DNA from: a virus | Direction: 5' to 3' (one strand) | IMG/VR virus record: IMGVR_UViG_3300025133_000033 | DNA: 64,000 nucleotides | Shown: piece after piece, positions 6,347-55,516 of the stretch | How positions within the stretch are numbered: position 1 is the stretch's first letter | Layout of the letters: the number at the start of each line of letters is the position of its first letter | Notes under the pieces: generated by a model | The model's input: only the letters and a program-made list of their open reading frames with translations | Databases searched by the model: none | What the model was told of the DNA's origin: nothing | Translations under genes and position numbers: made by a program

Positions 6347-8899
6347 CTAAGCACACTTCGAAAAGCCACATTGAGTACAGGTAATACATCCTTCTTGACG
6401 GATCAGACTCTCTTTTCCCTCGCATTCAGGACAAGCACAGTTTTCTTTAGCACCATCAGGGATGTATTTTTTAATGGCTCTAGCCATACTTTTCGCAAAG
6501 CATGTCATATCGCCCTTTACCTTCTCAAGCTGCTGTACAATCAGATGTATATCTGCACCATGTCGTAGACCTAGTGAGGTCATACGGGTCAAGGCATCTT
6601 CTTCAGCGGAACACGTTTGGTTTATTGGGGAAAGTTCTAAGCCGTCTTCTAAAATGGCCTTGTACACCCCTTTAGGTCTACCCAACTTTATTATAGTTCC
6701 ATTTAATACCTTTTTGTCTATGAATCCATTCTTACCCGCAAATACTTCATAAGGATCACCATTATATAATCCAACTAAAACGAAGTATGACTCGCCCTTT
6801 ACCTTAATGTGGTAGACATCACACGGTAATTCGCGGGGACGGTCGGGTGAAACGGTAGGTTTGATTTTGTCCTCGTTATCATCCAAAGATGATTCCGCAG
6901 CGAGAACAAAGGTCATGGTGCCTGCTCTATAGGTAGTAAAACCCTTGATACCATTTTTCCACGCCTTGGTATACACCATTTTAAAGTCATCATATGGGTA
7001 TTCTTTGGTCAGGTTAATGGTTTTAGAGATGGCAGAGTCTACCCATTTTGCGAAGATTGACATTGTATTAACATGGGCATCTACATCTAGCTCCATAGAA
7101 CATGATGCCCACTGAGCTTCAGGATTCCACTTGTCGAGCCCCTTCAGAATAGACACTCCATAGTCTTCGACCCACTCCTCTTTAGTTAGACCTCTATTAC
7201 GGTCAAACTTCCAGGTCTTATCTTCAAATGAAGTAGCTAAGAGATTTTCATCTCCTTCTTTTATCCATTTCCAATCAGTATGAGGGCTTCCGTTATAACT
7301 GTCTATATCAAACTTCTTGTTTTCCCAGCTCACATTTTTTGGAACAGCTAACCCTTCTGGAGGAACAGGCTGTATGGAAGTTCTGACATAACCATGCATA
7401 AATAAGGGCTCAAGACCACCGCTAACAAGGTTCGCGAAACACGAACTATTGCCGGTAGGTTGAATTGAGGTGACATGAGAATTTCTCATTCCATGCTTCT
7501 TAATCAATGCTATAGTTGATGGGTCAAGCTTCTCAATAAACTCTCCCCTTAAGTACTGTTCTTCATCATATAGGTCAAAAGACCCCTTCTCTTTTGCTAA
7601 TAAAGCAGATGCCTTGTACGCCTCATTGGTAAAGAATTCCATTAGTTCTTCTGTCATCTTCAACGCTTTTGGACTACCATATTTAACACGAGCCATGAGC
7701 ATAGCAGAGCCATAGCCCAAGACACCGAGACCAATACGTCGTTTGTCTTTCAGGTTTTTCTTTTGAGAAGACAATGGAACGTTTGTAATATCATTTACAT
7801 TATCCATAAACCTTACGGCTGTATGTATATTTTCCTTTAGCTCTTTCCACTTCCATTCTTTTGTTAACGGATCAATGAAGTGAACTAAATTAATAGAACC
7901 AAGTAGACAAACAGCACCTATAGGAAGAACTTGTTCTCCACAGGGATTGGTCGCATTTATCCATTCCAACCAGTGCAAATTATTCATGCGATTCATAGTA
8001 TCAACAAACAATACTCCCGGTTCGTTCCGGTTATATGTATTGCTCATGATAAGATCCCATAGCTCACGAGCCGAATCAAATTTATGGTGAACAACCAAAG
8101 GGTCTTTTGGTTCCTCTAGGCGTATGATAGAGTTGAATGACTCCGCTTTCTCTACGTTATCAACCCACCTCTCTATGCTCCCATCCCAGCCCTCTTTGTA
8201 TAGCTTTGGATATGCCTCATAGTTAGGAAAGACTAGCTCCCAAGGCTGATCGTTTTCTACAGCATTCATAAATTCATCAGTACATAGCACCGACATATTG
8301 AACTTAGTCAGACGACCAGGGGTTTTCTTGGCCTCTATAAACTCTAGAACATCGGGGTGCCAGCATGACATTGTTACCATCTGGGCACCTTTACGAATGA
8401 AGTTCTTTTCATTCTTATTTGACTTTTTATTTGAGCCAGCAGTAATAATTTCAGAAGACTTGTCCCATAGCTCTAAGAACTTAACTGAGCCAGGAGATTG
8501 GTTGGCTATGCCGTGAATATGAGACCCGCAAGGACGCATAATATCAGCACAGAAGCCATAGCCACCCTCTGACTTAAGGATTTGGGCTTGCTTTGTAAGA
8601 GTGCCGTAGATACCCTCTATGGAGTCTTTGTCTCGGCCTTCGAACCCATCAACGAAGCAGTTGATATAGGTCGTTCCTTTGATTCCGGTCCCAGCATTTG
8701 AGGTAATGCGACCGCCAGGAACAAATTTGAAATTTTCTAGAGCTTGATAGAATTTCTTAGTCCACTTTTCTTTATCTTTTTCTACCCCTGCTAGGTTGAC
8801 TGCTACTCTCTTCCATGTGTCCTCTACACAAGTATCATCCTTGAACTTATACTTCTGAAACCACGTCTCTTCCGAGAACGAATTGGTAAACGCACTCAT
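6347..8899 (-). CDS. nrdJ: Adenosylcobalamin-dependent ribonucleotide reductase (class II)
   Basis: PGGRI, NCFV, TNPCGEQ, CLLGSINL, QPTG; C-terminal TSCPD-like domain and Zn ribbon; no beta subunit nearby. Confidence 0.92.
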   Translation of the reverse strand: MSAFTNSFSEETWFQKYKFKDDTCVEDTWKRVAVNLAGVEKDKEKWTKKFYQALENFKFVPGGRITSNAGTGIKGTTYINCFVDGFEGRDKDSIEGIYGTLTKQAQILKSEGGYGFCADIMRPCGSHIHGIANQSPGSVKFLELWDKSSEIITAGSNKKSNKNEKNFIRKGAQMVTMSCWHPDVLEFIEAKKTPGRLTKFNMSVLCTDEFMNAVENDQPWELVFPNYEAYPKLYKEGWDGSIERWVDNVEKAESFNSIIRLEEPKDPLVVHHKFDSARELWDLIMSNTYNRNEPGVLFVDTMNRMNNLHWLEWINATNPCGEQVLPIGAVCLLGSINLVHFIDPLTKEWKWKELKENIHTAVRFMDNVNDITNVPLSSQKKNLKDKRRIGLGVLGYGSAMLMARVKYGSPKALKMTEELMEFFTNEAYKASALLAKEKGSFDLYDEEQYLRGEFIEKLDPSTIALIKKHGMRNSHVTSIQPTGNSSCFANLVSGGLEPLFMHGYVRTSIQPVPPEGLAVPKNVSWENKKFDIDSYNGSPHTDWKWIKEGDENLLATSFEDKTWKFDRNRGLTKEEWVEDYGVSILKGLDKWNPEAQWASCSMELDVDAHVNTMSIFAKWVDSAISKTINLTKEYPYDDFKMVYTKAWKNGIKGFTTYRAGTMTFVLAAESSLDDNEDKIKPTVSPDRPRELPCDVYHIKVKGESYFVLVGLYNGDPYEVFAGKNGFIDKKVLNGTIIKLGRPKGVYKAILEDGLELSPINQTCSAEEDALTRMTSLGLRHGADIHLIVQQLEKVKGDMTCFAKSMARAIKKYIPDGAKENCACPECEGKESLIRQEGCITCTQCGFSKCA

Positions 8900-20286: not shown

Positions 20287-20591
20287 TGGTGGAGCCGGGG
20301 GGGATTCGAACCCCCCGTCCCTAATTGTTTTCAATAAAGCGTCTACGTGTTTGTGTCGAGCTAAGCCCTGCACGACCAAGGGGCAGGATAGTTTAATGAC
20401 CTCTTACAGTCCAGCTTCAAAACAGGTATCTAGCTTTGGTTAACAGGGTGCTAGATAACCCCTACTGCTTACGCAGCTAAAGCAAAGTTTTCGTTTGCAA
20501 TTAAATGTTAGTCAATTTTTTAGGTAGCCCTTTGACCAACTACCACACGCAACTTTACATCCGTCCAATAGGTCGAAACCAAGTCGGCCCC
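20287..20591 (-). ncRNA. ssrA: tmRNA with tag (A)ANENFALAA
   Basis: 5' GGGGCCGACTTGGTTTCGAC; 3' GTTCGAATCCCCCCCGGCTCCACCA; tag ORF at 20469-20498. Confidence 0.96.
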
Positions 20592-23342: not shown

Positions 23343-23441
23343 TAACGAATACCTAGTCCCCTAAGTATTAAGTCTATCCAACAAATTAAAATATCACAAG
23401 TCCAGATTGCCAATCCTCGCCAATCAGGGTATCTCATTTAG

Positions 23442-23516
23442 TGATGCCGGTGGGGGTCGAACCCACAAACTACAAGATTTTAAGTCTTGTTCCTCTACCA
23501 GTTGGGATACGGCACC
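23442..23516 (-). tRNA. tRNA-Leu(TAA), short variable loop
   Basis: Loop CTTAAAA. Confidence 0.85.
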
Positions 23517-23530
23517 GTGTTATTAGCTAT

Positions 23531-23685
23531 ACCAGTGTGCTACTACGCCAAAGACCATGCTGCATGTTCGCATGACGCCCCCGCACATGCTTTCCGCGAG
23601 AGTTGGTTGTTACCATACGCCCCCTTCTTTCTACGGAAGGGAATCACTCTTTAAATGATGGCTGCTTCTAAGCCCACATCCTAGT
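23531..23685 (-). ncRNA. 23S rRNA GTPase-associated-centre (H43-H44, uL11-binding) mimic with internal insertion
   Basis: ACTAGGATGTGGGCTTAGAAGCAGCCATCATTTAAAGAGTG-[~96 nt]-GCGTAGTAGCACACTGGT, compared with 23S 1051-1108. Confidence 0.85.
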
Positions 23686-23704
23686 AGTCTTCGCTAATAA
23701 ATTG

Positions 23705-23784
23705 TCCCCTGCCCAGAACGTACACGGTCGCGACCCGTCCTAGAGGTTCACCAAGGTCACGGTCGAATTGAACGGCCTTCGGGG
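23705..23784 (-). ncRNA. Candidate small RNA with a 5'-proximal T-arm
   Basis: CCCC/GGGG termini; GGCCG-TTCAATT-CGACC T-loop hairpin. Confidence 0.4.
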
Positions 23785-23787
23785 TAG

Positions 23788-23860
23788 TGGGCAATGAGGG
23801 ATTCGAACCCCCGACCATTTGGATGTAAGCCAAACACTCTAGCCGCTGAGTTAATCGCCC
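23788..23860 (-). tRNA. tRNA-Val(TAC)
   Basis: Loop CTTACAT. Confidence 0.9.
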
Positions 23861-24342: not shown

Positions 24343-24711
24343 TTAATGTAGAAGATCAATCCTACCTTTCTCTAGCACTTCTTTCAAAGGAGCTGTCTTG
24401 CCGTTAGTATGGTTCGTGACAATTCCCTTTTTGAAATCGTATGTGCGAATCCTTGGAGTGTTTTTAATCTTATCGTCGCGTCTCGCCTTCTTCTCTGCTG
24501 CCTGCTGCTCGTCTTGTTGTTCTTTTATTTTTTCCTCGATACGCTTAAGAGCTATGCGATGATTCTGCTTGCGGGTACGCTGTTCGTCTATCTCCACCTT
24601 TAGTCCTGTGGGGATATGAACAATCCTACATCCTGTCTCTACCTTATTCTTATTCTGACCACCAGGGCCTTTCCCTTTGTAGTAAGAAATCTTTAGGTCT
24701 TTCTTATTCAT
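24343..24711 (-). CDS. RF-1 domain (GGQ) peptidyl-tRNA hydrolase, ArfB/PrfH-like
   Basis: GPGGQNKNKVETGCRIVHIPTG, RIRTY; no stop-codon recognition domain. Confidence 0.9.
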   Translation of the reverse strand: MNKKDLKISYYKGKGPGGQNKNKVETGCRIVHIPTGLKVEIDEQRTRKQNHRIALKRIEEKIKEQQDEQQAAEKKARRDDKIKNTPRIRTYDFKKGIVTNHTNGKTAPLKEVLEKGRIDLLH

Positions 24712-24735
24712 CTCTTCTTCCTTTTGTTAAGTAAG

Positions 24736-24808
24736 TCGTACTCCTGTGAGTCGAACACAGTACGTCTTCCTTATCAGGGAAAACCGCATAACCGATGCAG
24801 CGAGTACG
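24736..24808 (-). tRNA. tRNA-Ile(GAT), atypical D arm
   Basis: CGTACTC/GAGTACG acceptor stem; loop CTGATAA; T arm CTGTG-TTCGACT-CACAG. Confidence 0.75.
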
Positions 24809-55436: not shown

Positions 55437-55444
55437 ATACTAAG

Positions 55445-55516
55445 TAGGACTGGAAGGAATTGAACCTTCAAGGCCAGCCTTATAAGAGCTAGTGGAGTAC
55501 CATCTCGCTCAGTCCC
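55445..55516 (-). tRNA. tRNA-Ile(TAT)
   Basis: Loop CTTATAA; GGGACTG/CAGTCCT acceptor stem; A73. Confidence 0.75.

Follow-up and report, generated by a model that had tools for sequence, protein, structure and literature searches.

Phage genomes are known to encode tRNAs, tmRNA, and a small number of ribosomal proteins, and the large structured noncoding RNAs GOLLD and ROOL occur near tRNA genes in phages and prophages. Other RNAs act by imitation. For example, 6S RNA, an abundant and stable molecule, sequesters a host protein by imitating an open promoter. The rplJ/L10 leader (Rfam RF00557) imitates part of the H42 region of the bacterial GTPase-associated center, which comprises H42–H44 of 23S rRNA. 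This domain is known to bind uL11, uL10–bL12, thiopeptides, and translational GTPases including EF-G. For EF-G, the title of a 1997 paper by Munishkin and Wool reports binding to isolated oligoribonucleotides of the thiostrepton domain.

The 58-nt rRNA domain adopts a compact fold that by itself binds L11 with high affinity, and NMR docking places the interface with the uL11 C-terminal domain at nucleotides 1058–1060, 1062–1065, 1075–1083, and 1088 (PMC1802607). The site for L10 lies in H42, and binding of L10 and L11 is cooperative (PMC1635324). Kt-42, the kink-turn of this helix, contains an A-minor pair between C1043 and A1048 (PMC1919483). A further ligand of the domain is the elbow of A/T or A/R tRNA; in the RelA complex, the A/R tRNA elbow is the stacking partner of A1067 (PMC5829649). 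Finally, the toxin Tre23 ADP-ribosylates H44 at 1095–1098 and blocks the GTPase activity of EF-G (PMC8661411).

The window analyzed here, a stretch of 64,000 nucleotides from the IMG/VR virus record IMGVR_UViG_3300025133_000033, holds on its minus strand a 181-nt noncoding RNA element (23700..23520) located between two tRNA genes. Judged by its sequence and that of its relatives, this element is a member of a large and widespread phage RNA family with the fold of the 23S stalk base.

Results

A sequence-only reading of the window had described this region as a free-standing element that mimics the GTPase-associated center. The minus-strand sequence quoted in that reading is present letter for letter, and 23685..23531 aligns with E. 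coli 23S 1051–1108 (reference rrlH). The Rfam model LSU_rRNA_bacteria matches 23700..23520 at model positions 1077–1160 of 2925, corresponding to H42–H44 only, with a score of 34.9 bits (E 4.7e-9) for the region alone and 40.6 bits (E 7.9e-9) when the whole window is searched. These scores lie below the gathering score of the LSU family because the element represents a small part of the model. An Rfam search of the 64-kb window revealed no second piece of rRNA, and neither here nor at any other viral locus giving a match is the element part of a full-length LSU rRNA. Rfam families other than LSU do not match the element, and leader models gave no match at E values up to 10. As scored by Rfam, the match to rRNA is far beyond chance and isolated, and the description as a free-standing mimic holds.

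The boundaries proposed in the same reading, 23531–23685, proved too narrow. The Rfam alignment continues without gaps past the 6-bp closing helix, crosses an asymmetric loop, and reaches an 8-bp stem that is perfectly paired, and the whole element corresponds to E. coli 23S 1036–1119, the complete H42–H44 module, plus an inserted arm. We could confirm that both halves, the A1067 and A1095 loops, and the closing helix are kept: all 25 of the 25 rRNA-equivalent base pairs are able to form, so that H42 closes off two hairpins, H43 bearing the 1067 loop and H44 bearing the 1095 loop. No open reading frame of more than 55 aa overlaps the element, and its G+C content is 0.53 compared to approximately 0.43 in the surrounding DNA.

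From its 5' end, the element begins with the lower H42 strand UUAUUAGC (23693..23700, minus strand as for all parts; equivalent to 1036–1043), which Rfam aligns to the C-stem of H42 and which forms eight perfect pairs with 23520–23527. The bulged strand of a kink-turn-42-like asymmetric loop follows (23686..23692: GAA bulge, G1047 A1048, and C U, in the register of rRNA Kt-42). The 5' strand of upper H42 (1051–1056; 23680..23685) covaries with the corresponding 3' strand (1103–1108; 23531..23536). Between these strands lie the H43 hairpin with the A1067 loop (1057–1081; 23655..23679), which contains the exact GGCUUAGAAGCAGCC core, the junction triloop and the 5' strand of H44 (1082–1090, UUAAA GAGU; 23646..23654), in which 1082 and 1086 covary, the inserted arm (23553..23645), the family-specific UUUG linker (23549..23552), and the upper part of H44, comprising the A1095 loop and the 3' strand (1091–1102; 23537..23548), in which A1101 replaces the U of rRNA. 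The element ends with the nonbulged strand of the kink-turn-like loop, AUA (1109–1111), and the lower H42 3' strand GCUAAUAA (1112–1119), together 23520..23530; A1111 is kept, and 1110 is U and not G.

The inserted arm requires another correction. It had been placed in the three-way junction as a unit of approximately 96 nt, and it actually interrupts the 5' strand of H44 between 1090 and 1091; the unit consists of a 93-nt helix, with four covarying pairs in its base stem, and the conserved UUUG linker. The complementary segments CCCUUC/GAAGGG that had been noticed in the insert plausibly form the first hairpin of this arm.

Lower H42 distinguishes the window element from its relatives. Among the 75 members with enough flanking sequence in the matches listed, it is the only one with an rRNA-like lower H42, consisting of an 8-bp C-stem, a 3-nt GAA bulge, G1047 and A1048 opposite A1111, and arms of the same length as in rRNA. 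The register of the loop matches C1043/A1048 of Kt-42. The G1047–A1111 pair is present, and in this one sequence the second sheared pair is A–U, compared to A–G in rRNA. A directed scan of 11 further loci identified no other member with a convincing kink-turn, and locus L131 is only partly rRNA-like. We treat the kink-turn-like extension as a lead, since it rests on a single sequence beyond the reach of covariation. With this extension, the window member may also bind the uL10–bL12 stalk complex.

To what extent the element is shared by other phages was examined in IMG/VR. One scan, with the 18-nt H43 core as the pattern, returned at least 116 loci; another, with the 3' half of the family (UUUG, the H44 loop, and ACAC, a combination absent from rRNA), returned at least 119 loci, 92 of which were new. 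Together these scans yielded at least 208 loci with at least 184 elements, at least 145 of them nonredundant. Among the matches listed, no member lies inside a 23S gene. Comparison of the loci from the first scan with E. coli 23S by blastn found homology confined to about 1046–1100 among the matches listed, and therefore none of these loci is an rRNA gene. By shared proteins, this first set comprises at least 87 phage lineages.

Among the matches listed, the family follows a common plan: a variable stem, GGA-N-GU-N, the H43 core, UAARGAGU, and the insert make up the 5' part, followed by YUUUG, GCGUARNAGCACAC, and the second strand of the stem in the 3' part. The window element bears this signature, with GAGU, the inserted helix, UUUG, and GCGUARNAGC followed by ACAC with A1101. 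We also built a covariance model of this phage GAC-mimic family (R1). This model scores phage copies at 81–101 bits versus 48–61 bits for real 23S, and the window element at 101.2 bits over 23525–23688, in the upper part of the family range.

The core also occurs, unannotated, in a collection of cultured phages. We found it in Cronobacter phage GAP32, Pectobacterium phage CBB, and Yersinia phage fHe-Yen9-04, in Xanthomonas phages XacN1 and XaC1, in Pseudomonas phages pf16, Milchi, Astolliot, and UNO-G1W1, and in Aeromonas phage 4_4572. Of these, GAP32, CBB, XacN1, and pf16 are jumbo phages. The copies of GAP32 and XacN1 are full members, one per genome, and are located in unannotated gaps. The GAP32 copy reads GAGU...UUUG...GCACAC, compared to GAAAGC...GCUCAC in E. 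coli 23S, which we used as a stand-in for the enterobacterial host. Since the GAP32 copy has the family form and not the form of E. coli 23S, the element was not recently taken from the host. One viral contig carries two tandem copies of the element with a tRNA-Pro gene between them (L042:5138–5700, plus strand). Paenibacillus phage Pd_22F (MZ092003.1; L329:2300–2720, near position 83.9 kb of the record) was considered as a member and rejected, as it contains a continuous genuine 23S fragment instead. This fragment sits in a 1.7-kb unannotated gap and is probably host DNA.

The relatives allow a test of the structure. Among the matches listed, the H42 pairs 1051–1055/1104–1108 are 88–96% paired and include all four Watson–Crick types, and the base pairs 1057–1081 and 1058–1080 of H43 covary across the family. 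In a MAFFT alignment of 29 members, examined with a 22-pair structure against 500 shuffles and slid controls, 92.5% of the cells were paired (68.0% in shuffles), 164 cells showed double changes (53.5 in shuffles), and the covariation score was 0.607 (0.142 in shuffles). None of the 500 shuffles reached this score, and the slid controls did not exceed 0.19. A second test used 83 distinct sequences aligned by R1, mostly ascertained via the 3' half; this alignment, which is fitted to the model and leans toward the structure, gave 90.3% versus 68.3% paired cells and a score of 0.441 versus 0.123, again reached by 0 of 500 shuffles. The first four pairs of the inserted arm covary in both alignments, and hence the insert forms a helix that branches off H44 immediately 3' of U1090. 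At the level of aligned sequences, there is support from covariation for H42, the base of H43, the 1082–1086 pair, and the base of the arm.

These observations bear on the possibility that the element is a neutral relic, that is, a captured piece of host 23S, which is now decaying and which may have flanked a mobile intron or an intervening sequence as its exons. This reading could draw on HNH endonuclease genes as the commonest neighbors, but these occur in only 8 of 87 lineages among the matches listed, and on the Pd_22F record, a phage record that does hold a true 23S fragment. It is contradicted by the compensatory changes in the helices and by the invariant core, by A1101 and UUUG, which are absent from rRNA and common to phages of unrelated hosts, and by the inserts, which share no common intron core and have no intron match in Rfam. 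In addition, a search of 185,579 bacterial and archaeal genomes found the 3' half of the family in just 20 stretches; most of these stretches are MAG contigs, and several are tRNA-dense. We consider a decaying relic extremely improbable, and we rejected neutral capture of host rRNA on the basis of covariation together with the family-specific features. The sequence-only reading had preferred selection to random capture and had pointed to neutral decay of the rRNA-like halves as the opposing outcome. The homologues display the reverse of decay, with at least 145 nonredundant relatives, compensatory changes in every variable helix, and an invariant tertiary core. In these comparisons, the view that the fold is kept by selection, and is not left over from random capture, is strongly supported.

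We then turned to the question as to which nucleotides are conserved. For the 5' half, conservation was read in 60 sequences that had been ascertained only via the 3' half. In these 60 sequences G1055, G1059, U1060, G1071, C1072, and C1079 are invariant, A1084, A1085, G1087, A1088, G1089, and U1090 are present in 60 of 60, and 1082/1086 covary as U–A, C–G, and A–U. Conservation in the same set is lower at the tip of the 1067 loop (A1067 85%, G1068 80%, A1070 71%). For the 3' half we used 75 members in which this half is partly fixed by the search pattern; here G1091–C1100 and C1092–G1099 are invariant, A1095 is present in 73 of 75, 1096 is occupied by A or G, and 1097 is free to vary. Two family features were part of no search pattern of that set: A1101, a U in rRNA, is found in 75 of 75 members, and the positions of the UUUG linker are conserved in 67–73 of 75 (U 71, U 73, U 68, G 67).

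The window element contains the complete tertiary core of the domain, consisting of U1060/A1088, G1071 and C1072 with G1091–C1100 and C1092–G1099, and 1082–1086, and these nucleotides are invariant or covarying in the 60–75 relatives. The nucleotides of the interface with the uL11 C-terminal domain are invariant, near-invariant, or covarying as well, with C1076 and U1078 somewhat looser. In the window element this interface is uninterrupted, and the insertion point 1090/1091 lies outside the list of interface nucleotides. A1067, a contact for factors and antibiotics, is kept in most members and not in all. This pattern of conservation points to the fold and the uL11 site as the objects of selection, more than to the contact for factors and antibiotics.

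The inserted arm behaves differently from the conserved parts. Across the at least 145 nonredundant elements, the inserts measure 24–365 nt with a median of 136, and their interior varies in length and sequence. The folding energy of the 93-nt arm in the window is unremarkable (z = −1.0). Its 3' hairpin resembles those of L054 and L019, with one compensatory change relative to these two. The hairpin CCGUAGAAAGAAGG was considered as a bulged-G motif and rejected, as the likeness is loose and the relative L054 lacks it. An IMG/VR scan with TGCGGGGNCGTNATGC for relatives of the window insert type gave chance matches only. Likeness to rRNA within 145 inserts, searched by blastn-short against E. 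coli 16S, 23S, and 5S, amounted to scattered weak matches with no hot spot. Roughly one in five inserts among the matches listed contains the motif CACCCCGUAACUGGUAAGG. About 20 of 119 dereplicated members (e.g., L111, L017, and L008) contain CACCCCGUAAC(U)GGUAAGG near the 3' end of the insert; the window insert has only the AUGGUAA part of this motif. A stem-flanked, sarcin-ricin-like AGUACGNRAGGA hairpin is present in 2 of 145 inserts, compared to a shuffle mean of 0.39. These two are the long inserts of L034 (offset 223) and L063/L094 (offset 245), in which the hairpin reads AGUACGGGAGGA or AGUACGAAAGGA. Neither the window insert nor the 64-kb window contains a copy of the sarcin-ricin loop.

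According to ARAGORN and Rfam, the window holds 25 tRNA genes and a tmRNA gene, all on the minus strand. The upstream neighbor of the element, tRNA-Val(UAC) (23787..23860, minus strand; ARAGORN and Rfam), ends 86 nt before it, and the 5' end of the downstream neighbor, tRNA-Leu(UAA) (23441..23516, minus strand), lies 3 nt after it. The 86-nt spacer following tRNA-Val (23701–23786, minus strand) is not notably structured (z = +0.9), and the sequence next to the element matches neither a promoter nor a terminator consensus. Another unassigned spacer, of 98 nt (23343–23440, minus strand), is found inside the tRNA array. As the natural reading of this arrangement, we infer cotranscription with the tRNA array and release by RNase P and 3'-processing enzymes; RNase P cleavage at the 5' end of tRNA-Leu would set the 3' end of the element.

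The family as a whole shows the same preference. Among the matches listed, genes for tRNA or tmRNA are found at 105 of 145 loci, and 40 loci are without any tRNA gene. The nearest flanking tRNAs are encoded on the strand of the element in 173 of 173 cases, the upstream tRNA ends at most 15 nt from the element in 32 of 86 cases, and the downstream tRNA starts at most 15 nt from it in 30 of 87 (all among the matches listed). No protein gene is a constant neighbor in the 87 lineages, and the commonest neighbors, coding for HNH endonuclease, PNKP, RNA ligase, and metallophosphatase, are each found in at most 8 of the 87 (again among the matches listed).

A stable fold that serves the tRNA array itself, as a spacer or cap aiding RNase P/Z processing or tRNA stability, with an rRNA likeness that reflects origin only, would account for the strict link to such arrays, for the ends that often abut tRNAs, and for the lack of a constant protein partner. 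Any stable hairpin would serve this purpose, however, and yet the full tertiary core and both functional loops are kept across at least 145 lineages. Moreover, 40 of 145 loci among the matches listed have no tRNA gene to serve, and most phage tRNA arrays, including those of the nearest huge-phage relatives, do without the element. We judge such a role unlikely as the explanation of the family.

The same arrangement argues against a cis-regulatory leader, to which uL11 or uL10 would bind and so control the translation or stability of adjacent phage genes. The downstream neighbor in the window is a tRNA 3 nt away and not a coding sequence, tRNAs occur on both sides across the family with no conserved downstream gene, no leader model of Rfam matches, and the element does not lie in a ribosomal-protein 5' UTR. 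Despite the classical precedent of ribosomal-protein regulation through rRNA mimicry by mRNA leaders, and despite the small same-strand ORFs that lie downstream of the window element, we regard regulation in cis as very unlikely.

The protein genes in the neighborhood of the element include those for an ArfB-like RF-1-domain protein, SSB, and a DUF6899 protein. The tRNA island that contains the element also encodes a tmRNA with the tag ANENFALAA (20287–20591, minus strand), and the ArfB-like protein of this island is a stand-alone RF-1/GGQ protein of 122 aa (24343–24711, minus strand; Pfam E 1.6e-24). Together they make up a ribosome-rescue set adjoining the rRNA mimic. In a second tRNA cluster, ARAGORN predicts a tRNA-Ile(UAU, tat) gene (55444–55516, minus strand), in addition to the tRNA-Ile(GAU) at 24735–24808. 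Between 28000 and 43500 (minus strand) lies a run of sugar-modification genes coding for a DegT-type aminotransferase, a C-methyltransferase, and several glycosyltransferases.

The closest relatives of the class II ribonucleotide reductase encoded at 6347–8899 (minus strand) are those of LR756502, LR756501, and LR756503 (51–54% identity), which are uncultured huge phages of 642–735 kb. From this relationship, the window is probably of huge-phage lineage. R1 gave no match in LR756502 and LR756501, and a search of IMG/VR with the ArfB-like protein identified no relatives of the window phage.

Discussion

A lone domain that carries an additional arm cannot join a ribosome, and the element must therefore act in trans, by binding something. 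In the mechanism that we propose, the RNA would be transcribed as a unit of the tRNA array and excised by tRNA-processing enzymes. The free RNA would then bind host uL11, using the surface that it preserves for the C-terminal domain of this protein, as a case of molecular mimicry, and the window member would perhaps also bind the uL10–bL12 stalk complex through its kink-turn-like H42 extension. Two outcomes can be envisaged: these proteins would be withdrawn from the host, resulting in uL11-poor ribosomes and a weakened RelA response, or the RNA would present a decoy copy of the site at the GTPase-associated center. Our preferred proposal, that the element is a trans-acting decoy capturing uL11, has in our estimate an even chance of being correct. 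The sequence-only reading had suggested titration of uL11, which RelA activation needs, or absorption of toxins or factors, and both suggestions fit the literature and the conservation pattern, in which the contacts of the uL11 C-terminal domain rank highest.

Several arguments can be raised against the capture of uL11. Titration of free uL11 would leave the uL11 of existing ribosomes in place, and it would also slow the translation of the phage's own proteins. No co-occurring protein gene points to a pathway. The proposal assigns no role to the arm, which is always present, or to the conserved UUUG linker. Furthermore, a pure sponge for the uL11 C-terminal domain would not need A1067 and A1095, which are still 85–97% conserved.

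The main alternative is that the surface of the RNA itself is the bait and, alone or with uL11, would absorb a defense effector or competitor toxin that modifies or cuts H43/H44, a translational GTPase, or a stringent-factor complex. The 85–97% conservation of the 1067 and 1095 loops fits this idea. Binding of EF-G by the isolated domain, as announced in the title of Munishkin and Wool (1997), would be in line with it. A toxin that targets this loop exists in the form of Tre23 (PMC8661411), and the stacking of A1067 on the A/R tRNA elbow in the RelA complex (PMC5829649) also speaks for it. The neighborhood of the elements has the character of translation repair, with tRNAs, tmRNA, and the ArfB-like protein in the window and PNKP and RNA ligase elsewhere, and phage tRNAs that replace or shield tRNAs targeted by host nucleases offer a parallel by analogy. 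The sarcin-ricin-like hairpin in 2 of 145 inserts would complete the factor-binding site in those members, but the window insert has no such copy. Nor does any known defense system aim at the GTPase-associated center; Tre23 is a secreted interbacterial toxin, and a substrate decoy is a poor means to stop a catalytic enzyme. Finally, A1067 is altered in approximately 15% of the members, and 1097, within the stretch modified by Tre23, varies freely. An RNA-surface decoy of this kind is conceivable, and we entertain it only tentatively.

A variant of these ideas combines RNA and protein. Given the binding sites that the sequence appears to preserve, uL11 and uL10–bL12 might assemble on the RNA to form a free "stalk-base particle" that would act as an anti-defense decoy, for instance for a Tre23-like effector, or as a sink for GTPases or RelA. 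We find the formation of such a particle doubtful.

Whichever ligand is involved, the family appears to be undescribed. It is absent from Rfam 15, and we could not find a description of it in the searchable full-text literature, which includes the 2023 catalogue of phage structured RNAs and largely leaves out subscription journals. A free-standing copy of a functional rRNA domain, kept by selection, would represent a new class of viral tool for takeover or counter-defense. Its target would be the most factor-rich site of the ribosome, at which uL11-dependent RelA activation, thiopeptides, and Tre23 act. With a large family, unrelated hosts, and cultured jumbo phages as carriers, the question is directly testable. 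The natural variants provide a mutational map of the nucleotides of the center with respect to fold and uL11 binding, and the window member is a natural construct of the whole Kt-42 plus GTPase-associated-center module.

The closest described system is the bacterial 23S GTPase-associated center itself (H42–H44), with which the element shares the same helices, the sequences of the A1067 and A1095 loops, and the nucleotides of the tertiary core. When the comparison is extended to the center with Kt-42 (1036–1119), the arm lengths around the kink-turn-like loop of the window member match as well. In contrast to the ribosomal domain, the family element stands alone among tRNA genes with no rRNA nearby, it carries an arm of 24–365 nt and UUUG between 1090 and 1091, and it has A1101 instead of U. 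The family H42 consists of unrelated, covarying sequence, and A1067 is not strictly conserved. The autoregulatory leaders of ribosomal proteins offer an analogy, in that an RNA outside the ribosome imitates the site of a ribosomal protein. These leaders act in cis, are part of cellular mRNA, and copy a local motif, whereas the element is a gene of a phage tRNA array and reproduces a whole folded domain.

With phage tRNAs and tmRNA the element has in common the genomic niche, the strand, and the probable route of processing, and like them it is a copy of a part of the host translation apparatus. Unlike these RNAs, which are able to substitute for their host counterparts, an isolated rRNA domain cannot enter the ribosome. 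The proposed sequestration by structural mimicry recalls 6S RNA as an analogy only, as the two RNAs are not related in sequence or structure. GOLLD and ROOL resemble the element as structured RNAs adjoining phage tRNA genes. The element has no Rfam match to either of them and, unlike them, has an obvious cellular model.
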